NCBI RefSeq assembly: GCF_035654295.1
Contig: NZ_DASRXF010000016.1
Span: 10,663-74,662, forward strand
Reading direction: 5' to 3'
Source: Noviherbaspirillum sp.
Lineage (GTDB): Bacteria > Pseudomonadota > Gammaproteobacteria > Burkholderiales > Burkholderiaceae_D
Length of the DNA stretch: 64,000 nucleotides
A program made the position numbers and the translations under genes. This document shows positions 1,404 to 10,581 of the stretch, in pieces. The notes beneath the pieces were generated by a model. It made no database searches, was not told where the DNA came from, and was given only the letters and a program-made list of their open reading frames with translations. The stretch's first letter is position 1; the number at the start of each line of letters is the position of its first letter.

Positions 1404-2044
1404 CCCCAGGCGAGATCGGGTGGTACGGCAAGCTGCCGGCCGCCGGCGATTTCCTCCGCCACCATCTGCCGGATGCCTTCGTCGACGACTGGGATGCCTG
1501 GCTGCGCGCCGGCATGGCGGCCGCGGCGGATGCGCAGGGCGAGGACTGGCAGGACAGCTTTCTTCGCTTTCCGGTCTGGTATTTCCTGCGCGGCAATGAC
1601 GGCAGCGGCGCGTGGGCCGGACTGCTGCTGCCGGGCGTGGACCGCGTTGGACGCTTGTTCCCCATGACCGTTGCCTTCAACATCCCGCCGGACGACTTTG
1701 GCGGCCTGGCATTCGCGCAGATCGAGACGCGCCTTGCCGCGATCGAAGACCACACTCTCGCGGTGCTCGGCGACGACGACCTTGAGCGTTTTGAAGAAGC
1801 GCTCGCCGCCTTGCAGCCCTTGCAGCCGGAGCCGCAAGACACGTCCGCCACGTCCGCCACGCCGGCCGCCCTGGTCGAGACACTGGGCAAACAAGCGCTT
1901 TACGCAAGCCTCGCAGAGCGTGCGGTCTTCTGGTCATCCGTCCACGCCGCGGAGAAATTCCTGCACGCGCTGCCGGAACCCCTGCAGGCCGACAGCTTCT
2001 GCAAGCTCGTTCTGCCCGCTCCCATCCCTATCCTGAGTGAATGA
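1385..2044 (+). CDS. tagF: TagF/ImpM (DUF2094) T6SS-associated post-translational regulator
   Basis: In-frame ATG at 1385 inside track ORF 1223..2044. The N-terminus GWYGKLPAAGDFLRHHLP is the typical TagF start. Position directly after tssM matches H1-type clusters. Confidence 0.8.
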   Translation: MPSETLAPGEIGWYGKLPAAGDFLRHHLPDAFVDDWDAWLRAGMAAAADAQGEDWQDSFLRFPVWYFLRGNDGSGAWAGLLLPGVDRVGRLFPMTVAFNIPPDDFGGLAFAQIETRLAAIEDHTLAVLGDDDLERFEEALAALQPLQPEPQDTSATSATPAALVETLGKQALYASLAERAVFWSSVHAAEKFLHALPEPLQADSFCKLVLPAPIPILSE

Positions 2045-4613
2045 CATGGACGACGACAATGACAGGACCGTAGTGCGCAGCAGCCACACGCACCGGCCGC
2101 AGGCGCCGCGCGATTTCGGCGCGCAGACGCAGGGCGTCAACGGGCTGCCGGTCGGCACCCGTCTGGGCGAGTTCGAGATCACCGGACTGGTGGGTGAAGG
2201 CGGCTTCGGCATCGTGTATCTCGCCTACGATCATTCGCTGGACCGCCAGGTGGCGCTGAAGGAATACATGCCCGCGGGCATGGCCTCGCGCACCCAGGCC
2301 TTGCAAGTGACCGTGCGCTCCCGCCACTATGTCGACACCTTCACGATGGGCCTGAAAAGCTTCGTGAACGAAGCACGCATGCTGGCGCGCTTCGATTCAC
2401 CCTCGCTGGTGAAGGTCTATCGCTTCTGGGAAGACAATGGCACTGCGTACATGGTCATGCCCTACTACGACGGCGTCACGCTCAAGCAGGCGCTGACGGA
2501 CCGGCTGGTGGTGCCGGACGAAGAATGGCTGCGCCGGCTGCTGACCAATCTGCTCGATGCGATCGACACGATCCACCAGGTGCAGTGCTACCACCGTGAC
2601 ATCGCCCCCGACAATATCCTCATCCTGAAAGACGGCAGGCCGCTGCTGCTGGACTTCGGCGCCGCGCGCCGCGTCATCGGCGACCTCACGCAGGGCCTGA
2701 CCGTGATTCTCAAGCCCGGCTTCGCGCCCATCGAGCAGTATGCGGACATCCCCGGCCTGAAGCAGGGTCCGTGGACGGACATCTACGCGCTGGCCGCGGT
2801 CGTCTACTTTGCCATCACCGGCAAGACGCCGCCGCCATCGGTGGCGCGCATCGTCAACGACGAGATGCTCCCGGCACGCGAGGCGGGGCGAGGACGGTAC
2901 AGCGAGCATTTCCTTGGCGTGATCGACCGCGCGCTTGCCGTCAAGCCCGAGAACCGCATCGGCTCGGTGGCCGAACTGCGCGATGCGCTCGGCCTGCAGG
3001 CCGGCATTTCACGCACCATGCCGGGCCTCGGCGCGCGCGCGCCCGCCGGCGGAGCCAGCCCTTCCCCATGGCCGGGCACGCAATCTCCCCGCCGCACCGG
3101 CACCGGGAAGACGGCGCAGGACGACGACTGGCACAAGACCATGGTCTCCGACCAGCGTCAGATGCCGCCCAGGAAGCGCAGCAAGGTCGGCGCGATCCTC
3201 GGCACTCTGGTTGTCCTCGCGGGCGTGGGCGGAGGCGTGGCCGGATACCGCTGGATGACCGGTGCCGGCAATCAGGAAACGCCTACCGCAGAACGGCCGG
3301 CGGCCGCAACCGACGAAGTGCAAAGCTCAGGCTCCACCGAGGGCGCCGGGACCTCCGCCTCCGGACCGGGCCCGGGCACCCCCCCGCCCCCGGCGGCTGA
3401 TGCATCGCCTCCCCCTCCAGCCGCCCCGCCCGCCACGCCGCCCGCAGCCATCACGCCTGCACCGGCACCGCCGCCCCCGGTCGCGCTCAACACGGAAAAG
3501 CCCGCGCCCGAACCCCGTCAGGCCAAGCCGCTGCCGCCCGCACCTGCTGCGCCGACGACCGCACCCGCAGCGCCGGCAGCGCCGGGCCTGTCAGCAGAAG
3601 ACGAACTCTGGCGCGCGGCAACGGAAAAGGATACGCGTTCCGCCTATGAGGCCTACCTGAAGAAGTACCCGCGCGGCAAACATGCGCAGGCCGCGCGCGT
3701 GATGATCGACAGCACCGCGCCGAAACTGACGCAGGCGGAACCCGCGCCCGCTGCGCCAACGCCGCCGGTGAAAGAAGACAAGCCCGCGCCGCCGGCGTCA
3801 AAATCGCCCGACACGGCTACCGCCATGAACAATGCGACGGCACCGTCCGCGCCAAAGCCGGAAGCAAAGCCTCCCGCTCCGGAGCCGGAACGCCGCCCCG
3901 CGCAAACGTCCGTCAATCCGGCAGGTACACCCTCCGTCGCCCCGCCTGCGCCCCCGCCTGCCCCTGCTCCCGCCGCGCCACCGCCGCCCGTCACACTCAG
4001 GACCCCCGGCCCCGACCCGTCCACCGAGGCGAAAAAGGAAGCGCCAAAACCCGAAACGCCTCCGCCGCCGCCGGCAGGCACGCAGAAGACGATCAAGCTC
4101 GCGGGCCAGACCATGACCGGCAATTTCACTGCCGATCCTGCCACCGGCATCGTGTCCGGCAGCGGCCATATTGTCTGGGACAACGGCGACCGTTACGAAG
4201 GCCGCCTCGTCAAGGGCAGCAAGGAAGGCCGGGGCCAGTTCACCTGGGCCAACGGCCAGCGCTATACCGGGGACTGGGCCGGCGACGTACCGAACGGCAA
4301 AGGCGTGCTCCGCTTCGCCAACGGCAACCGCTATGAAGGCGAGGTCAGGAACGGCGAGCCCCACGGCCAAGGCACCATCCGTTTTCCGAGCGGCGACGTC
4401 TATACGGGCGGCTGGATGAAAGGCAAGCACCACGGCCAGGGCAAGTACACCTGGGCCAACGGAACGTACTGGGAAGGCGAGTTCAGGGATGGCGCGAAGA
4501 CCGAGAACGGCAAGACGGTGTTTGCCGATGGCCGCGTGCAGATGGGAACCACCGCCTCGGCCGAAGCAGGCGGTGCGCAGCAGAACACCTCGGGCAGCAC
4601 GACTGAGAGATAG
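2037..4613 (+). CDS. ppkA: Hanks-type Ser/Thr protein kinase, PpkA-like: N-terminal kinase, one TM helix, Pro/Ala-rich linker, five C-terminal MORN repeats
   Basis: Kinase motifs VALKEY, HRDIAPDNIL and LLDFGAA are visible. TM segment VGAILGTLVVLAGVGGGVAGY lies at about 3183-3255. Five 23-aa units (YEGRLVKGSKEGRGQFTWANGQR etc.) span 4194-4539. Start is GTG 2037 (overlaps the tagF stop) or ATG 2046. Confidence 0.85.
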   Translation: MNDMDDDNDRTVVRSSHTHRPQAPRDFGAQTQGVNGLPVGTRLGEFEITGLVGEGGFGIVYLAYDHSLDRQVALKEYMPAGMASRTQALQVTVRSRHYVDTFTMGLKSFVNEARMLARFDSPSLVKVYRFWEDNGTAYMVMPYYDGVTLKQALTDRLVVPDEEWLRRLLTNLLDAIDTIHQVQCYHRDIAPDNILILKDGRPLLLDFGAARRVIGDLTQGLTVILKPGFAPIEQYADIPGLKQGPWTDIYALAAVVYFAITGKTPPPSVARIVNDEMLPAREAGRGRYSEHFLGVIDRALAVKPENRIGSVAELRDALGLQAGISRTMPGLGARAPAGGASPSPWPGTQSPRRTGTGKTAQDDDWHKTMVSDQRQMPPRKRSKVGAILGTLVVLAGVGGGVAGYRWMTGAGNQETPTAERPAAATDEVQSSGSTEGAGTSASGPGPGTPPPPAADASPPPPAAPPATPPAAITPAPAPPPPVALNTEKPAPEPRQAKPLPPAPAAPTTAPAAPAAPGLSAEDELWRAATEKDTRSAYEAYLKKYPRGKHAQAARVMIDSTAPKLTQAEPAPAAPTPPVKEDKPAPPASKSPDTATAMNNATAPSAPKPEAKPPAPEPERRPAQTSVNPAGTPSVAPPAPPPAPAPAAPPPPVTLRTPGPDPSTEAKKEAPKPETPPPPPAGTQKTIKLAGQTMTGNFTADPATGIVSGSGHIVWDNGDRYEGRLVKGSKEGRGQFTWANGQRYTGDWAGDVPNGKGVLRFANGNRYEGEVRNGEPHGQGTIRFPSGDVYTGGWMKGKHHGQGKYTWANGTYWEGEFRDGAKTENGKTVFADGRVQMGTTASAEAGGAQQNTSGSTTER

Positions 4614-4708
4614 GAGATTCGTACGTAAGTTGTATGGCGCGGCGGAGGGTATCGGCTATATCGTTATTCAACCGCTCATGAACAGCAACCAGAACAAGGA
4701 GAGATGCC

Positions 4709-5191
4709 ATGGCTGTGGATATGTTTTTGAAACTTGACGACGTCAAGGGTGAATCGCGGGATTCCAAGCACAAGGATGCGATCGAGGTACTCGCCTGGAG
4801 CTGGGGCATGAGCCAGACCGGCACCACGCACACAGGAACCGGCGGCGGCGCGGGCAAAGTGAGTGTTCAGGACCTGTCCATCACCAAGTACATCGACAAG
4901 GCAACGCCGAGCCTCACGATGTACTGCTGTAACGGGAAGCACTTTAAGGAAGGCGTCCTCATCGTGCGCAAGGCGGGCGAGAAGCCGGTCGAGTATCTGA
5001 AGATCACGATGAAGGAAATCATCGTCTCCTCCGTCTCCACCGGCGGCAGCGGCGGCGAAGACAAGCTGACGGAAAACATTTCCCTGAACTTCGCCGAGTT
5101 CAAGGCCGAGTATGTGCCGCAGAAGGCGGATGGGTCTTCGGATTCGACGATTACTGCGGCTTGGCATATTGCGGAGAACAAGCAGGGGTAA
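4709..5191 (+). CDS. hcp: Hcp (TssD) T6SS tube protein, Hcp1-type
   Basis: 160 aa. MAVDMFLKLDDVKGES...LAWSWGMSQ...GGGAGKVSVQDLS..KYIDK.TP closely resembles P. aeruginosa Hcp1 as I recall it. SD AAGGAG lies upstream of ATG 4709. Confidence 0.93.
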   Translation: MAVDMFLKLDDVKGESRDSKHKDAIEVLAWSWGMSQTGTTHTGTGGGAGKVSVQDLSITKYIDKATPSLTMYCCNGKHFKEGVLIVRKAGEKPVEYLKITMKEIIVSSVSTGGSGGEDKLTENISLNFAEFKAEYVPQKADGSSDSTITAAWHIAENKQG

Positions 5192-5230
5192 CAAGCTGTT
5201 CGCTACAGTCAGCAGAAGGAGACGGGTCGC

Positions 5231-5273
5231 GAGGCGACGCGCGGAGAACGGCAAGAAACGATCGCGTCGCTTC
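5231..5273 (+). terminator. Possible weak hairpin/attenuator downstream of hcp
   Basis: An 11-bp stem (5231-5241 pairs with 5263-5273, one G-U) with a 21-nt loop, followed by a pyrimidine-rich TTCTCCTCTCC tract but no clean U-tract. Function not established. Confidence 0.25.
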
Positions 5274-5308
5274 TCCTCTCCCTGCCTGGCATCTTTAGGA
5301 GAATCGCC

Positions 5309-5689
5309 ATGCCAGTTTTCAGGCCTGCACATCTCCTCTACGAAGGAGGAAGCGAGGAGATCAATAGGTACCGGGGGAGAAAGGTACGATCCATAGGAAA
5401 AGTCGCCCTGTATCTGCCGCCGGGCCGTCCCGAGCCAGGCGGCTCTGTGGTGTATTTGAAGTCGATGTACGTTGAACCGGCCTGGACAGGATTTATCGGG
5501 GGATGGCATGCGGAAAACGGCTGTATCGCCCTCGCTTACCCCAAGGCACAACCCATCGGCGAGGTGATGACCTTCGAAAAGCTCATGTCGGGACGGAACC
5601 TGACCGAATGCCACATATTCAACCTGGTGGACATGTCCACGTTCAGGTTTCACTTCGAGATGGAAGACACCGGCCGTTCCAAGACCTAG
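5309..5689 (+). CDS. Hypothetical small protein (126 aa), no recognisable domain
   Basis: GGAG lies 7 nt before ATG 5309. Sits in a lower-GC islet directly downstream of hcp. No signal peptide or TM helix visible. Confidence 0.55.
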   Translation: MPVFRPAHLLYEGGSEEINRYRGRKVRSIGKVALYLPPGRPEPGGSVVYLKSMYVEPAWTGFIGGWHAENGCIALAYPKAQPIGEVMTFEKLMSGRNLTECHIFNLVDMSTFRFHFEMEDTGRSKT

Positions 5690-5824
5690 GCGAATCTCAC
5701 GAAGAGGGCCGCTGATTTTCGCTCTTGCTTCAGTGGCCTTCCATTCTCCCGATCCGGCCTATGTGCCACGAGTGCGGCGTCTCGTTTCTCATGAGTCGCT
5801 CCACGGTGTGGCAAGGAGAAAGTG

Positions 5825-6337
5825 ATGACTACATTAGACAACACCGGATTCTCCATCCTGATGCCGAAGGACCGGCCGCGTCCAAAAATCACAAACCGGA
5901 CGCATGCCCGATTACGCCATACCTACAACATGTGGCACGACGATCTTAAGGAACAGCTGGCAGAGGAAGAGGCTGTCGCACAAAAGAAATACAAGGCCAA
6001 AGAAAATCAGATTCTTTTCGATGACAATTTGAACATAGAAGATCCTCGAGGAAAGAGCAAATATACGCAGGGAAGAAAAAGCAAGTTCGACTCGGACACT
6101 TTCATCCGGCAAGCGGTTGACGAGTCCTATAAGCATCCTGCTATCGCAAAACCGGGTAAGGAAAAATCCCATTCGCACTCCATCACTTTCGACTTCGGAT
6201 GCGAAGTGGGATTTGATGCAAGGCATAACCGCCGGACGTCCACGGTAACGGTTGTTGTTCATCCCGGCAAATCCGACGGCCCGCCGGAAGGCAGATTCGA
6301 ACCCGGAGAAGTCATCACCGTTTACCCCGGCTTTTAG
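5825..6337 (+). CDS. Hypothetical protein (170 aa): Lys/Glu-rich N-terminal half and compact His-rich C-terminal region
   Basis: AAGGAG at 5813-5818 lies 6 nt before ATG 5825. The gene sits in the lowest-GC part of the islet (60-nt lines counted at 35-48% GC). No domain recognised. Confidence 0.55.
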   Translation: MTTLDNTGFSILMPKDRPRPKITNRTHARLRHTYNMWHDDLKEQLAEEEAVAQKKYKAKENQILFDDNLNIEDPRGKSKYTQGRKSKFDSDTFIRQAVDESYKHPAIAKPGKEKSHSHSITFDFGCEVGFDARHNRRTSTVTVVVHPGKSDGPPEGRFEPGEVITVYPGF

Positions 6338-6457
6338 TTTCCAACAGTAGAGGGATTTTCGCCGCGCTATCGTCAATAGACCTGTTTGGCCGGCCCGTTC
6401 TCCCGTTCAGAATCTCGCGCGGCATATGGCCTTCTTTTCATTTTCAAGGAGCATAAC

Positions 6458-6922
6458 GTGGCACTAACTTTCGATCCCCGGTGCAAAAAACTGCTGCAGG
6501 AGGAATACGCGCGCCTGAAGTATTTCAATGGACCGCTCTGCAGCATAGTGGAAGGCCTTTCGGCCTACGTATCCGGCCTGTGCAAGAAGGACGTCATGGT
6601 CACCTGCATCTGCCGCACCCAGGCCCGCAACGACGAAATCTACGCTTGCATGAAGGAGAAAGCGCGTCCCAAGCCGCGCAAGACCGCGCACAGCGTTTAT
6701 GCCGCCATCGACTTGCGGTCCCGCGGGCTTGAAAAGCACATTCCAGCCATGCTCGATTGGCTTAATCAGTACAACAGCAGTAATGCCAACCCCACGAAGT
6801 CCGGCCGGACCGCCTTCTTTCATGAGGTCAACGGGCATGGCCCTCACTTTCATGTCCAGTACCAATTGAAGACGATCAAGCAAAAGCCGCTGACCAAAAT
6901 GCATGCCAAGCAGGTACGGTAG
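6458..6922 (+). CDS. Small protein (154 aa) with LAS-type (peptidase M15-like) zinc-binding signature, putative peptidoglycan peptidase
   Basis: AGGAG lies 6 nt before GTG 6458 (the track start 6386 is a TTG). Motifs are VTCICRTQARNDEIY, then AHSVYAAID (H-x6-D), then GPHFHV (H-x-H). Order and spacing are as in YcbK/phage M15 peptidases. Pattern-level call only. Confidence 0.5.
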   Translation: MALTFDPRCKKLLQEEYARLKYFNGPLCSIVEGLSAYVSGLCKKDVMVTCICRTQARNDEIYACMKEKARPKPRKTAHSVYAAIDLRSRGLEKHIPAMLDWLNQYNSSNANPTKSGRTAFFHEVNGHGPHFHVQYQLKTIKQKPLTKMHAKQVR

Positions 6923-6998
6923 ACGGCCACTCGCAGCTCCGTGAAGGATGGCTCCTCGAGAACTCGTGCGTCGTTGCTTTGCGGGGGAGGAGGTAACG

Positions 6999-7463
6999 CT
7001 AGCCGGCACTCCAGCTAAACGGCACCCATCCTCCCTTCACACCGCCAGACGAGGCCTGCGCCGCGTACTCATAGGTTACCCGCTGGAACGTGAACGCCAC
7101 GGCTTCCTCGGGCAGCTCGCGCTGGCTGTCGTGGGCCATTTCCACATTGGTCAGGCGCACCCGCTCGAACCTGATGGTGGCAAACAGCTGGGCGGCGCCG
7201 CCTGCACGCCGCATCGACAGTTTCGCCGTCGGAATTTCCTTGCCGGCCACGCAGCGCGCCATCAGCGCCGGAGAGGCGGTGTCAATGAGATGCGTGAACC
7301 GGAACTCTCGTACGTCCCCCCTGCCCGTTCCCTTGCCAGACAGGTTGTGCTCCGCATGCCAGTTCACACCCCAGTTCCAGCCGGTGACCATGATGGCGCC
7401 CTTGTAGTCGGCATCCACCGCTTCACCGGTGATCTGGTCGAACTGGATGAAGCAATCGCCCAT
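6999..7463 (-). CDS. hcp: Second, divergent Hcp (TssD) paralogue
   Basis: 154 aa in the position immediately after tssC. Hcp-like features are FIQFDQITGEA...GAIMVTGWNWGV and ...F.F.HLIDTASPALM. Much less similar to Hcp1 than the ORF at 4709. Confidence 0.8.
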   Translation of the reverse strand: MGDCFIQFDQITGEAVDADYKGAIMVTGWNWGVNWHAEHNLSGKGTGRGDVREFRFTHLIDTASPALMARCVAGKEIPTAKLSMRRAGGAAQLFATIRFERVRLTNVEMAHDSQRELPEEAVAFTFQRVTYEYAAQASSGGVKGGWVPFSWSAG

Positions 7464-7476
7464 CGCTCACTCCCTG

Positions 7477-8961
7477 TCAGGCGGCCTTCTGCGACGGCAG
7501 CTTCGATACCAGGCGCAGGGAGACGGTGAGTCCTTCGAGCTGGTAGTGCGGCCGCAGGAAGAACTTGGAGCTGTAGTAGCCGGGATTGCCTTCCACATCT
7601 TCCACCACGACCTCGGCCGAGGCCAGCGGACGGCGTGCCTTGGTTTCGTCGGAGGAAATGGACGGGTCGCCGTCGACGTACTGCATGATCCAGTCGTTCA
7701 GCCAGCGCTGCATGTCGTTGCGTTCCTTGAAGGAGCCGACCTTGTCGCGCACCATGCACTTGAGGTAGTGCGCAAAGCGGCAGACCGCGAACAGGTACGG
7801 CAGCCGGGCGCCGAGATTGGCGTTGGCGGTGGCATCCGGATCGTCGTATTCGGCCGGCTTGTGCAGGGACTGGGCGCCGATGAAGGCGGCAAAGTCGGAG
7901 TTTTTCTTGTGCACCAGGGGCATGAATCCGGTCTTGGCAAGTTCGCTTTCCCGCCGGTCGGAGATCGCGATTTCGGTCGGGCATTTCATGTCCACGCTGC
8001 CGTCGTCGGTCGGGAAGCTGTGTACCGGCAGATTGGGTACCGCGCCGCCCGACTCGATGCCGCGTATCTGCGTGCACCAGCCGTAGAGCTTGAAGGCGCG
8101 GGTGATGTTGGCGGCCATTGCATAGGCGGAATTGGCCCAGGTGTAGCGGCTGTGGTCGCCGGCGGCGGTGTCTTCCTCGAAGGCGAAGTCTTCCACCGGG
8201 TCGGTCTTCTGGCCGTACGGCAGGCGGGCCAGGAAGCGCGGCATGGCCAGGCCGATGTATTGCGAGTCTTCGGAATCGCGCAGGGTCCGCCAGGCTGCGT
8301 ATTCCGGCGTCTGGAAGATCTTGGTCAGGTCGCGCGGGTTGGACAGTTCCTGCCAGGAGTCCATCTGCATCACCGTCGGCGAGGCGCCGGCGATGAAGGG
8401 GCAATGCGCCGCCGAGCCGATCTTGGCCATCTCCGACAACATTTCCACATCCTGCGGTGAATGGTCGAAATGATAGTCGCCCACCAGGCAGCCGAAGGGT
8501 TCTCCGCCGAACTGTCCGTACTCCGCTTCATAGATCTGCTTGAAGAGCGGGCTCTGGTCCCAGTTGGTGCCCTTGTAGCGCTTCAGCGTCTTTTGCAACT
8601 CGGCTTTGGAAATGTTCATCACGCGGATCTTGAGCATCTCGTCAGTTTCAGTATTGTTGACGAGATAGTGGAGCCCGCGCCATGCGCCTTCCAGCTTCTG
8701 CAGGTCGGGATGGTGCAGGATCAGGTTCAGTTGTTCCGACAGCTTGCGATCGAGCGCCGCCACCATCGACTGGATGGTGTCGACGACGTCGTGCTCCAGC
8801 AGCTGCGTCTGCTCCAGCGCCTGCTGCGCCAGCGTCTTGACGGCGGTTTCGACGGCAGTCCTGGCTTCGTCGGTCTTGGGCTTGAATTCCTTGTTCAACA
8901 GGCGCGCAAAGTCGTCGAATTGAACCGCGCCCTGTAATTGCTCTACTTGCAGCTCTGCCAT
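7477..8961 (-). CDS. tssC: TssC (VipB) contractile sheath large subunit
   Basis: 494 aa. Typical TssC sequence throughout, for example PFGCLVGDYHF and LKCMVRDKVGSF. Follows tssB. Confidence 0.95.
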   Translation of the reverse strand: MAELQVEQLQGAVQFDDFARLLNKEFKPKTDEARTAVETAVKTLAQQALEQTQLLEHDVVDTIQSMVAALDRKLSEQLNLILHHPDLQKLEGAWRGLHYLVNNTETDEMLKIRVMNISKAELQKTLKRYKGTNWDQSPLFKQIYEAEYGQFGGEPFGCLVGDYHFDHSPQDVEMLSEMAKIGSAAHCPFIAGASPTVMQMDSWQELSNPRDLTKIFQTPEYAAWRTLRDSEDSQYIGLAMPRFLARLPYGQKTDPVEDFAFEEDTAAGDHSRYTWANSAYAMAANITRAFKLYGWCTQIRGIESGGAVPNLPVHSFPTDDGSVDMKCPTEIAISDRRESELAKTGFMPLVHKKNSDFAAFIGAQSLHKPAEYDDPDATANANLGARLPYLFAVCRFAHYLKCMVRDKVGSFKERNDMQRWLNDWIMQYVDGDPSISSDETKARRPLASAEVVVEDVEGNPGYYSSKFFLRPHYQLEGLTVSLRLVSKLPSQKAA

Positions 8962-8992
8962 GTCGGTCTCCTGCGGCGTTTGATGGTGACGG

Positions 8993-9490
8993 TTAGCTTG
9001 CTTCCGGTTTCGGGCTGGCCGCTAGCGACTTGAGCAGCTCCGGGTCGTTCAAGACTTTTTCGATCAGTTCCTCCGCGCCCGTCTTGCCGTCCATGTAGGT
9101 GATGAGATTGTTGAGCTGCTGCCTTGCCTCCAGCAGCTTGCGCAGCGGCTCGACCTTGCGCGCCAGCGCACCGGGGGAAAAGTCGTCCATGCTCTCGAAG
9201 CTCATTTCCACCTTGATGTCGCCTTCGCCCGTCAGCGCGTTGGGCACCGTGAATTCGGCGCGCGGCTTCATCGCCTTCATCGCGGCGTCGAAATTGTCGA
9301 CGTCGATCTCGACGAACTTGCGCTCCGCCACCGGGGGCAGCGGGTCCTTGGGCTTGCCGGCGAGATCGGCGAGCACGCCCATCACGAAGGGAAGCTGCAC
9401 CTTTTTCTGGGCGCCGAAGACTTCGACGTCGTATTCGATCTGGACGCGCGGTGCGCGGTTGCGTGCGATGAATTTCTGACCTTGTGCCAT
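8993..9490 (-). CDS. tssB: TssB (VipA) contractile sheath small subunit
   Basis: ATG 9490 is preceded by AGGAGG. RAPRVQIEYDVEVFGAQKKVQLPFVMGVLADL is the canonical TssB N-terminus. Confidence 0.93.
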   Translation of the reverse strand: MAQGQKFIARNRAPRVQIEYDVEVFGAQKKVQLPFVMGVLADLAGKPKDPLPPVAERKFVEIDVDNFDAAMKAMKPRAEFTVPNALTGEGDIKVEMSFESMDDFSPGALARKVEPLRKLLEARQQLNNLITYMDGKTGAEELIEKVLNDPELLKSLAASPKPEAS

Positions 9491-9534
9491 GCTGCCTCCT
9501 GTCATGCTTGCGATGAATATTCAGACGCGCCTGC

Positions 9535-10581
9535 TTACGCCTCTTCCCTGCTGCCGGCCACCATGTCCACGGCGGAAATCGCGTCGGGCGCGATGTCGCG
9601 CACGATGTCGTAGAAGCTCATGGTGGAGAGCCGCTGTGCGCGGCGCAGCAGCAGCGGCGCCGGATTGGTCGGTTCATGCTTTTCAAAGTAGGTGCAGATG
9701 AGATCGAGCATGCGGGCGGCATCGGCGCTGGAGCGGATTTCGTTCGATAGCTGGACGCCCGCGGCCTGGCGCGCAACCGCAGGGGAAAGCTGTTCTTGCA
9801 CGGGCTCCGGGACAGGCTCGCCCGCCGATTCGCGCGGGGCCTCGTCGGACACGAACTTCCGGCAGTATTCGGCCAGCGGACGCAGGCGGTCGATCAATGG
9901 CTGCAGGTCCGGCGCGCGTTCCACGCCGACCTGTCCGGACAGATAGGCATGGAGCGCGCGCGTGAGCTCGACGGCACGCTGCGCATGGTTCTCGGAAAAG
10001 TGTCCTTCGGATTGCGCGGAGGCGACCAGTGCATCGATCTCGGGCAGCGCCAGCGGACGGGTGCTGCTATCCGATGACGGCGGCAGTATGCCGAGCGCGA
10101 CTTCCAGCTCACGCACCGTGCAGCCTCCCATTCCCCGCGCCGACACGAAGACGCAGTCGCGGATGTCGGCCAGCAGGCCGGCGCGGTCCGACAGCGGCGC
10201 CAGCGCATTCATCCTGAGGGTGGGGTCGTTATCCTCGCTCTCGTCCAGCTGCGGGTAGATGTGGTCCCAGAGCGTGCGGCACAGCCGCTCGATGATCTGC
10301 AAGCCCTGGACCAGGCCGGCGGGGCCGTGCAGGTGCGTGAGCGCGCGGGTCAGCGCGCAGGCTACGCGCAGGTCGCGCGTGCGGGCCGCCAGCGTCGTCG
10401 CCTGGACCAGCACCTGTTTCCAGTCGGGCGGCTCGGCGGGTATGACGGTCTCGCCGAACTGGCGCTCCGCCCTTCCGCGCTGTGCGACGTCGAGGGCAAG
10501 GAACGCATGGTCGTATTCCAGATCGGAGCCGGCCGGGTTGTCGCCATCCAGCACGCTGCAGAACTGTTCGATCTCGATCAA
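9535..10581 (-). CDS. tssA: TssA (ImpA_N domain) T6SS assembly protein
   Basis: 348 aa. The ImpA N-terminal pattern DNPAGSDLEYDHAFLAL is present. First gene of the tssABC-hcp operon. Confidence 0.88.
   Translation of the reverse strand: MIEIEQFCSVLDGDNPAGSDLEYDHAFLALDVAQRGRAERQFGETVIPAEPPDWKQVLVQATTLAARTRDLRVACALTRALTHLHGPAGLVQGLQIIERLCRTLWDHIYPQLDESEDNDPTLRMNALAPLSDRAGLLADIRDCVFVSARGMGGCTVRELEVALGILPPSSDSSTRPLALPEIDALVASAQSEGHFSENHAQRAVELTRALHAYLSGQVGVERAPDLQPLIDRLRPLAEYCRKFVSDEAPRESAGEPVPEPVQEQLSPAVARQAAGVQLSNEIRSSADAARMLDLICTYFEKHEPTNPAPLLLRRAQRLSTMSFYDIVRDIAPDAISAVDMVAGSREEA

Follow-up and report, generated by a model that had tools for sequence, protein, structure and literature searches.

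What lies between the two facing hcp genes of a type VI secretion system (T6SS), and is it cargo? The question is raised by a 64,000-nucleotide stretch of DNA from a Noviherbaspirillum species (contig NZ_DASRXF010000016.1; the whole analyzed stretch is called the window below), in which the stop codons of hcp1 and hcp2 enclose an islet of three small open reading frames (ORFs), ORF1 to ORF3. Comparison with related loci identifies this interval as a hypervariable cargo slot whose content is unrelated between lineages, and the composition of the islet is foreign, the slot having been filled by horizontal transfer in this lineage. Profile searches indicate that ORF3 is very probably a catalytically intact member of an undescribed family of LAS/M15-type peptidoglycan peptidases with endolysin ancestry. 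Whether the T6SS exports it is a closer call: that ORF3 is a T6SS effector is a proposition we hold at roughly even confidence. The features on which the argument turns are these (aa, amino acids; pI, isoelectric point).

4709-5191, plus strand: hcp1 (Pfam T6SS_HCP, 5.2e-44), with which the conserved tssM-tagF-ppkA-hcp1 operon ends; the left boundary of the slot is set by its stop codon.
5192-6998, no strand: the variable cargo slot (islet), bounded by both hcp stop codons.
5309-5689, plus strand: ORF1, 126 aa, 14.2 kDa, pI 8.6; an orphan.
5825-6337, plus strand: ORF2, 170 aa, 19.5 kDa, pI 8.9; a divergent representative of a rare family whose members are about 128 aa long.
5930-6130, plus strand: the lowest-GC stretch of the islet, 44.8% GC.
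6458-6922, plus strand: ORF3, 154 aa, 17.7 kDa, pI 9.7; LAS/M15-type, candidate Hcp-borne effector.
6614-6616 (R53), 6689-6691 (H78), 6710-6712 (D85), 6845-6847 (H130), and 6851-6853 (H132), plus strand: predicted active-site codons of ORF3, from conserved alignment columns.
6999-7463, minus strand: hcp2 (Pfam T6SS_HCP, 2.9e-29), which ends the tssA-tssB-tssC-hcp2 operon; its stop codon sets the right boundary of the slot.

That the slot behaves as a replaceable cassette is evident from its relatives. Three members of the Hcp1 90% cluster, to which the Hcp of Noviherbaspirillum malthae (91% identical to Hcp1) belongs, were looked up, which gave loci L107 to L112. Four lineages with Hcp1 proteins 91-94% identical share the same tssM-tagF-ppkA-hcp1 operon, and after hcp1 they carry four unrelated gene sets. 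The boundaries are sharp. In a multiple alignment with L107, L110, L111, and L112, homology stops at the hcp1 stop codon, and in an alignment with L110 it is back at the hcp2 stop codon, both breakpoints coinciding exactly with the islet limits, 5192-6998, that a first-pass annotation had drawn from the window's sequence alone.

In N. malthae and allied contigs (L107 to L110), the slot contains a Gly-zipper lipoprotein, an 84-aa acidic protein, and a 230-aa lipoprotein; in L110, this islet is followed by a convergent hcp2 (80% identity) and tssC (97% identity). In L112 and a 30-kb JGI contig, the slot holds Tae4 (164 aa), then proteins of 328 and 130 aa. The L112 Tae4 is full length, scores 53.3 bits against a Pfam cutoff of 27, and starts 118 nt past hcp1, where ORF1 here starts 117 nt past it. 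The L111 slot is filled by seven other genes, including those for 342-aa and 252-aa proteins, CsgG, a 160-aa HELAH protein, and a 142-aa signal-peptide protein.

Some details of these alternative contents are worth recording. The N. malthae-type islet spans 7030-8638 in L107 and 7285-8795 in L110; its first lipoprotein is of the Gly-zipper_YMGG type, its 84-aa protein is cytosolic, and its 230-aa lipoprotein weakly matches DUF1554 and Endostatin (C-type-lectin-like). Instead of effectors, these may be surface proteins or orphan immunity proteins. In N. malthae itself (L107), neither hcp2 nor tssC follows the islet. In the L112 slot (3105-5198), Tae4 has a GC content of 43.6% against 53% for hcp, and the 328-aa and 130-aa proteins have no Pfam match and, by eye, no signal peptide. 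In L111 (10003-10926), the 160-aa protein, with its HExxH-type HELAH motif, is followed 13 nt later by the 142-aa protein, which has a clear signal peptide. There is no Pfam match for either; together, they look like a metallopeptidase effector/immunity pair in the region downstream of hcp1.

More distant relatives are arranged differently. A GTDB genome scan with Hcp1 returned 80 loci at 57-78% identity; an earlier genome-contig scan with Hcp2 had yielded no relative. Nearly all of the 80 carry tssA-tssB-tssC-hcp1 on one strand, often with a second hcp next and no cargo, and in nine loci examined further tagJ-tssE-tssF come next, all on one strand. In the window (4709-10581) and the sister lineages, hcp1 stands after ppkA, and in the window it faces tssABC-hcp2, unlike most of the GTDB relatives. 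The cluster has therefore undergone a rearrangement in this clade, and the variable slot lies where the rearranged parts meet.

The composition of the islet sets it apart from its surroundings. Its GC content is 54.7%, compared to 63.7% for the window and 62-69% for core T6SS genes. GC at third codon positions (GC3) is 0.69 in ORF1, 0.57 in ORF2, and 0.74 in ORF3, compared to 0.79-0.87 in core genes, and an index modeled on the codon adaptation index (CAI) and built on the core genes gives 0.43-0.58 for the islet ORFs versus 0.63-0.76 for the core. The counts first reported for the trough, 21/60 for 6001-6060 and 29/60 for 5941-6000, are exact, and the deepest dip (5930-6130) falls in and around the first, Lys/Glu-rich, of two ORF2 segments absent from its family. 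Direct or inverted repeats, insertion sequence (IS) ends or scars, and tRNA-like scars were looked for at the islet edges and none were found; an Rfam scan of 4600-7600 gave no match. GC content, sister-lineage content, and breakpoints at stop codons thus support the earlier claim of an acquired, hcp-linked region: it is foreign in composition and forms a true variable slot next to hcp.

The three same-strand ORFs of 126, 170, and 154 aa after hcp are confirmed between the facing stop codons, as are their Shine-Dalgarno sites: AGGAG 7 nt upstream of ATG 5309, AAGGAG 6 nt upstream of ATG 5825, and AAGGAG 6 nt upstream of GTG 6458. ORF2 and ORF3 have alternative starts at GTG 5822 and TTG 6386, respectively; for ORF3, GTG 6458 is supported because the alignment of its homologue P0002 begins at residue 1. 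Spacers in the islet are 117-135 nt, and the islet ends close to the convergent hcp2 as described, the distance from the ORF3 stop to the hcp2 stop being 76 nt rather than the 77 first counted. No sigma-70-type promoter-like sites were found in the islet, and terminator-like sites were not enriched there (4 found versus 3.1 expected from shuffles). The single plus-strand terminator-like site lies between ORF1 and ORF2, with none between hcp1 and ORF1. No signal peptide or transmembrane helix occurs in ORF1 to ORF3, as stated at the outset; the top 19-residue Kyte-Doolittle hydropathy is 1.08.

Identifying ORF3 required moving beyond the protein itself. ORF1 to ORF3 have no sequence match of their own in Pfam, NCBIfam, PHROG, PADLOC, or PDB, and ORF3 finds nothing at E<=1 among Pfam and NCBIfam models. 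A word-indexed homology search with ORF3 gave one relative (P0002, 71% identity, E 7e-67), and an exhaustive profile search gave 113. Among 106 aligned relatives, H78, D85, H130, and H132 are invariant, and conservation reaches at least 90% at T49, R53, Y62, R87, H122, and Q134; ORF3 itself retains every invariant catalytic residue of its family. Its residue pattern, R ... H-x6-D ... H-x-H, is the LAS/M15 signature.

The relatives connect this pattern to named families. When 51 members of the family were scanned against Pfam and PHROG, the Pfam matches were all subthreshold: 13 were to DUF5715, 9 to VanY, 8 to Peptidase_M15_3, and 3 to Peptidase_M15_2. The best bit scores were 22.3 for VanY (P0029; cutoff 25), 18.0 for Peptidase_M15_3 (cutoff 23.2), and 23.7 for DUF5715 (cutoff 26.8), and P0025 spans positions 25-106 of the 108 in the Peptidase_M15_3 model. 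The PHROG endolysin families phrog_465 and phrog_894 were matched by 23 of the 51, at best with 2e-7 (phrog_465). Against PDB, five of the nine best matches of the family profile were M15/LAS proteins, namely the L-Ala-D-Glu peptidase Ply500 (2vo9, E=0.028), VanXYG, an M15C protein, LysB4, and DacB. In the first three, the predicted active-site region aligns with their motif yR..eQ..Y ... sxHxxgxAvDl, and the LysB4 and DacB matches fall in the same profile region as the Ply500 motif. The predicted order of secondary-structure elements in ORF3 also fits LAS peptidases; an AlphaFold2 model from a two-sequence alignment, with a predicted local distance difference test (pLDDT) score of 37.7, was unusable and its Foldseek matches meaningless. 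The initial view that none of the three proteins looks like a T6SS core or known accessory protein therefore gives way for ORF3, which is LAS/M15-like at the level of remote homology.

Where the family occurs says something of how it travels. ORF3-subfamily genes lie 6-10 GC points below their host locus in three independent contexts (55.9 versus 63.7 for window 6458-6922, 41.2 versus 51.4 for L001 10001-10456, and 64.1 versus 70.4 for L099 1400-1828), which is what a mobile gene would show and suggests repeated recent transfer. On the IMG/VR viral contig L102, the family gene has a major-capsid-like gene in its vicinity, together with one for a small membrane protein. Searches by tblastn of PLSDB plasmids and INPHARED phages with ORF3, the ORF2 homologue P0009, and the phage-like member P0036 returned nothing, and no phage or prophage context (holin, structural genes) for ORF3 was found in the window, where the flanks are T6SS core. 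Many of the aligned relatives (P0026, P0032, P0034, P0036, P0042, and P0064 among them), for the most part from phage-like sequences rich in AT, have a 40-80-aa N-terminal extension with a hydrophobic MKxFLxFLxSLF start, which may serve as a signal-arrest-release element or anchor the protein in the membrane. The extension is missing from ORF3 and from the relatives close to it.

ORF2 belongs to a rare family borne by mobile elements. Its 17 homologues, two of them from Candidatus Thiodiazotropha metagenome-assembled genomes, are about 128 aa long and 33-40% identical (best E 6e-19). The family has 27 invariant residues, with motifs THARLxH..WH, SKFDS, FD.G..xGxD, R.....VT, and GEVIT..PG, and ORF2 retains all 27. 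Compared to the 128-aa homologues, it has two extra segments, with about 40 extra residues, and is without the C-terminal TPWSKDQ tail; its CAI-like index is 0.43 and its GC3 0.57. The seven homologue contexts compared comprise integrase-flanked islands (TIR, Mrr, nSTAND, and AAA_15/DUF4276), a MobA contig, and CHAT/TPR/patatin neighborhoods, with no T6SS locus and no conserved neighbor among them. Members of the family had no match in Pfam, PDB, PADLOC, PLSDB, or IMG/VR, the ORF2 and ORF3 profiles are unrelated, and the neighbors of ORF2 and ORF3 homologues showed no similarity to one another or to ORF1 to ORF3. Two neighbors of ORF2 homologues (L004 8465-8956 and L006 4471-4914) carry an R-N-x-x-V-H (Rx4H, HEPN-like) motif, with weak Pfam HEPN_Apea, RiboL-PSP-HEPN, or PBECR5 matches; they do not sit at a constant place with respect to the ORF2 homologue, which leaves the link unproven.

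ORF1 is an orphan, and the sole match in its database search was ORF1 itself. We nevertheless favor a real gene, on the basis of its codon-position GC (GC3 0.69 > GC1 0.54 > GC2 0.44, an order also seen in ORF3) and its Shine-Dalgarno site; its CAI-like index is 0.46, compared to 0.63-0.76 for the core. Gene calls differ, giving 126 aa in JGI, Logan, and ENA and 74 aa from Met53 in one NCBI/UniRef record.

How might a LAS/M15-type peptidase serve a T6SS? Small effectors are known to travel inside the lumen of Hcp, and the gene that immediately follows hcp is often one for an effector (PMC7400221); M15-like domains have been seen in T6SS effectors before (PMC12135965, PMC6833914). Because of this established knowledge of Hcp-lumen cargo and hcp-downstream genes, and because the slot holds Tae4 in one lineage, cargo is the most likely reading of the islet, with the small, basic ORF3 as the best candidate. 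The slot begins at the hcp1 stop codon, the known effector occupies that same slot in L112, and all three proteins fall below the approximate 20 kDa size of Hcp cargo with no Sec signal (17.7 kDa for ORF3, 19.5 kDa for ORF2, and 14.2 kDa for ORF1). We infer that ORF3 would be made in the cytoplasm, where it would have no substrate and, like an endolysin, be harmless. It would then be loaded into the Hcp tube and fired into the periplasm of neighboring Gram-negative cells, where it would cut peptidoglycan stem peptides as a functional analogue of the Tae4 amidase occupying the same slot in a sister lineage. ORF1 and ORF2 would be independent passengers, serving as a second cargo, as a non-canonical protection factor, or as nothing at all.

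A number of observations weigh against this account. No signal-peptide-bearing candidate for a periplasmic immunity gene lies beside ORF3 in 5150-7050 on either strand, a search that covered the N terminus of every ORF and alternative start, and without immunity, an effector acting in the periplasm would strike kin cells. The islet yielded no identifiable effector-immunity pair. Homologues of ORF1, ORF2, or ORF3 were absent from the 80 GTDB Hcp1 loci and from the sister lineages, no T6SS context was seen among the ORF2- and ORF3-homologue loci examined, and ORF2 and ORF3 homologues were never seen together. The closest relative of ORF3, P0002, is flanked by copies of IS66 and IS240, a relative with 45% identity (L099) is in an ordinary high-GC chromosomal neighborhood, and distant members are on IMG/VR viral contigs next to capsid genes. 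The LAS assignment itself is transitive, built on individually subthreshold sequence evidence, with no curated model matched by ORF3. Finally, the islet is present on at least nine metagenome contigs from several samples, and four of these copies, compared at the DNA level, are 100% identical and therefore give no evidence of selection.

The missing immunity gene may count for less than it seems to. No Tai4-like periplasmic immunity gene is evident, judged by eye, beside the L112 Tae4, so that the absence of an obvious signal-peptide immunity gene may be a property of the clade and not evidence against secretion. The survey of homologue neighborhoods, set beforehand as a test, went the other way: IS-rich, integrase/defense-island, plasmid, phage, and plain chromosomal contexts were found, never T6SS loci, an outcome that the first-pass annotation had named in advance as one that would refute its proposal. 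No neighbor of the ORF3 homologues is conserved, and with ORF2 and ORF3 homologues never co-occurring, the three genes do not form a single module. The first-pass proposal of a horizontally acquired Hcp-linked cargo module accordingly survives in part. It is borne out in the foreign, hcp-linked variable slot, in the Tae4 of a sister lineage, and in the size and enzyme type of ORF3; it fails in that no co-inherited effector, immunity, and chaperone module is present.

The same survey feeds the strongest rival explanation, namely, that the slot is a passive landing pad. The convergent ends of two operons would be a permissive site for recombination at which horizontally acquired DNA piles up: a phage-type endolysin gene left stranded there (ORF3), a divergent gene from mobile elements (ORF2), and a spurious or young frame (ORF1), none of them secreted by the T6SS or tied to its function. 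Every informative homologue context is non-T6SS (IS-rich sequence, integrase/TIR/Mrr/nSTAND islands, a MobA plasmid-like contig, viral contigs, and plain chromosome), and there is no conserved partner gene. The two extra segments of ORF2 and its lost family C-terminal tail, the lack of any homologue of ORF1, spacers of 117-135 nt that are long for a tight operon, and an islet with no immunity gene would all be expected of such debris, and the N. malthae-type islet, with its lipoproteins, has no obvious effector either. However, the slot lies exactly after hcp1, and a genuine Tae4 is there in a sister lineage; in L111, a plausible HExxH protein is directly followed by a signal-peptide protein. 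Debris would also not be expected to keep all the invariant catalytic residues of ORF3 and all 27 family-invariant residues of ORF2, nor a good Shine-Dalgarno site for each ORF with no plus-strand terminator-like site between hcp1 and ORF1. We regard a passive landing pad as unlikely, although it deserves to be taken seriously.

A bolder form of the cargo account is improbable. According to it, ORF3 represents a new class of stand-alone Hcp-carried LAS/M15 effectors derived from phage endolysins and lacking canonical periplasmic immunity, and ORF2 a second new toxin family moving between mobile-element islands and T6SS slots. Self-protection could then be unconventional, with ORF1 or ORF2 providing it either during loading or in the cytoplasm. 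Alternatively, ORF3 could attack D-Ala-D-Ala or a precursor substrate in the cytoplasm, in the manner of VanX.

Quite improbable, in turn, is that ORF2 is the main toxin, a small nuclease-like enzyme with an alpha plus antiparallel beta core that acts in the target cytoplasm, with ORF1 and ORF3 unrelated to it or ORF1 its cytoplasmic immunity protein. Cytoplasmic action would explain the absence of periplasmic immunity, the many invariant His, Arg, Lys, Asp, and Glu residues of the family are typical of enzymes, and 19.5 kDa is near the Hcp-cargo size range. The AlphaFold2 model of ORF2 (pLDDT 65.5) consists of one helix followed by a sheet of about five strands. Its best Foldseek match is a chain of the complex of the MafB2-CT RNase toxin with MafI2 (8hhj_B, E=0.044, probability 0.63; PMC9970974), but this match is not significant (TM-scores 0.24 and 0.36), and chain B may not be the toxin. 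The model had no match in BFVD. A barnase- or BECR-like RNase gained no support from hhalign against barnase and RNase Sa, which gave a probability of <1%. No family member has a Pfam, PDB, or PADLOC signal, the homologues lack a delivery domain and, in the seven compared, an immunity gene conserved downstream, and in the window copy Tyr replaces the conserved His of GEVITxHPG. ORF2 may be a small enzyme; a toxin role for it is a guess.

Very improbable, and the weakest of the alternatives, is that ORF3 is a TagX-like housekeeping L,D-endopeptidase opening the producer's own peptidoglycan for T6SS assembly, as in Acinetobacter, Burkholderia thailandensis, and Ralstonia: TagX is a Ply500-related LAS/VanY-superfamily peptidase inside T6SS clusters, betaproteobacteria included (PMC5061870), and Ply500 is also the best PDB match of the ORF3 profile, but TagX has two transmembrane segments that place its domain in the periplasm whereas ORF3 has none with either start (the extension from TTG 6386 is not hydrophobic), the families matched by ORF3 relatives do not include pfam13539, to which the TagX domain belongs, ORF3 sits in a variable slot with foreign codon usage, and its absence from all sister and more distant T6SS clusters means that it cannot be a required component.

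The cluster that would export ORF3 is laid out as follows. The window begins inside tssM, which is followed on the plus strand by tagF, a PpkA-type Ser/Thr kinase gene (2037-4613), and hcp1. On the minus strand, tssC, tssB, and tssA lie upstream of hcp2 at higher window coordinates, and beyond tssA come tagJ, tssE, tssF, a 363-aa ORF, an 898-aa ORF, vgrG, fha, and pppA. With PpkA, PppA, Fha, and TagF, this is an H1-like T6SS of the threonine-phosphorylation-regulated kind, from a Noviherbaspirillum-related betaproteobacterium. The two converging T6SS core operons first described belong to one cluster, in which tssM-tagF-ppkA-hcp1 faces hcp2-tssC-tssB-tssA; a reading as two separate T6SSs can be rejected.

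Two neighboring features of the cluster were noted in passing. In the PpkA-like kinase, the linker is very long and rich in Pro and Ala, and MORN repeats are found at the C terminus; the sister-lineage kinases, of 797-1006 aa, have the same architecture. The vgrG gene (18575-20779) is flanked by ORFs at 17741-18532 (263 aa), 20959-21678 (239 aa), and 21675-22268 (197 aa), for which there was no Pfam match at 1e-3. These three are candidates for VgrG-linked cargo, adaptor, or immunity genes or for unrecognized accessory genes.

Hcp-linked variable effector slots and peptidoglycan-hydrolase effectors are already well known, and in this respect the architecture is conventional. The novelty lies in the sequence families and, possibly, in a stand-alone LAS peptidase that serves as Hcp cargo with no canonical immunity. 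Variable slots after hcp are a source of new T6SS effectors, and this one offers three candidates, two of them in families that have no description at all. If ORF3 is secreted, a stand-alone LAS/M15 peptidase would join an Hcp-cargo repertoire so far dominated by papain-like amidases, and it would illustrate clearly how a T6SS can draw a weapon from an endolysin lineage. With no immunity gene visible beside ORF3, nor by eye beside the sister-lineage Tae4, the locus also raises the question of how these strains spare their own kin. Four lineages with near-identical Hcp1, sharp breakpoints, and different cargo make up a compact natural system for studying how one Hcp accepts unrelated cargo.

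Known systems resemble the locus in different ways. The tae4-tai4 pair adjoins hcp in Salmonella SPI-6 and in Enterobacter cloacae. Like ORF3, Tae4 of the Tae4/Tai4 pair (PF14113) is a small cell-wall hydrolase (about 17-18 kDa) that has no signal peptide, is encoded immediately behind hcp, and presumably takes the Hcp-lumen route, and a real Tae4 is in this very slot in sister lineage L112. Unlike Tae4, which is a papain-like NlpC/P60-type amidase, ORF3 would be a zinc LAS/M15 peptidase with no adjoining periplasmic immunity protein, and the PF14113 model does not match ORF1, ORF2, or ORF3.

With the M15/LAS enzymes (Ply500 2vo9, LysB4 6akv, VanXYG 4f78, DacB 4d0y, VanY, and Peptidase_M15_3), ORF3 shares a conserved Arg, the H-x6-D metal ligands, and a C-terminal His motif. 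The same region aligns in profile searches, relatives of ORF3 reach 18-24 bits against these Pfam models, and distant relatives are phage-borne; unlike the established members, ORF3 and its relatives stay below every curated threshold. The C-terminal motif of Ply500 and VanX is D/E-x-x-H, where ORF3 instead has H-x-H (HFH).

Within T6SSs, TagX of Acinetobacter (PMC5061870), an L,D-endopeptidase, is likewise a Ply500-related LAS-family peptidase encoded within a T6SS cluster, but it is membrane anchored, conserved, and needed for assembly, whereas ORF3 is soluble, lineage specific, and located in a variable slot. WHIX subclass II effectors (PMC12135965) and Tpe14 of Acinetobacter baumannii (PMC6833914) provide the precedent for an M15-type peptidoglycan-cleaving domain as T6SS cargo. 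There, the domain belongs to a large protein that depends on VgrG or WHIX and has a signal-peptide immunity gene next to it; ORF3, in contrast, stands alone as a 154-aa protein encoded next to hcp.

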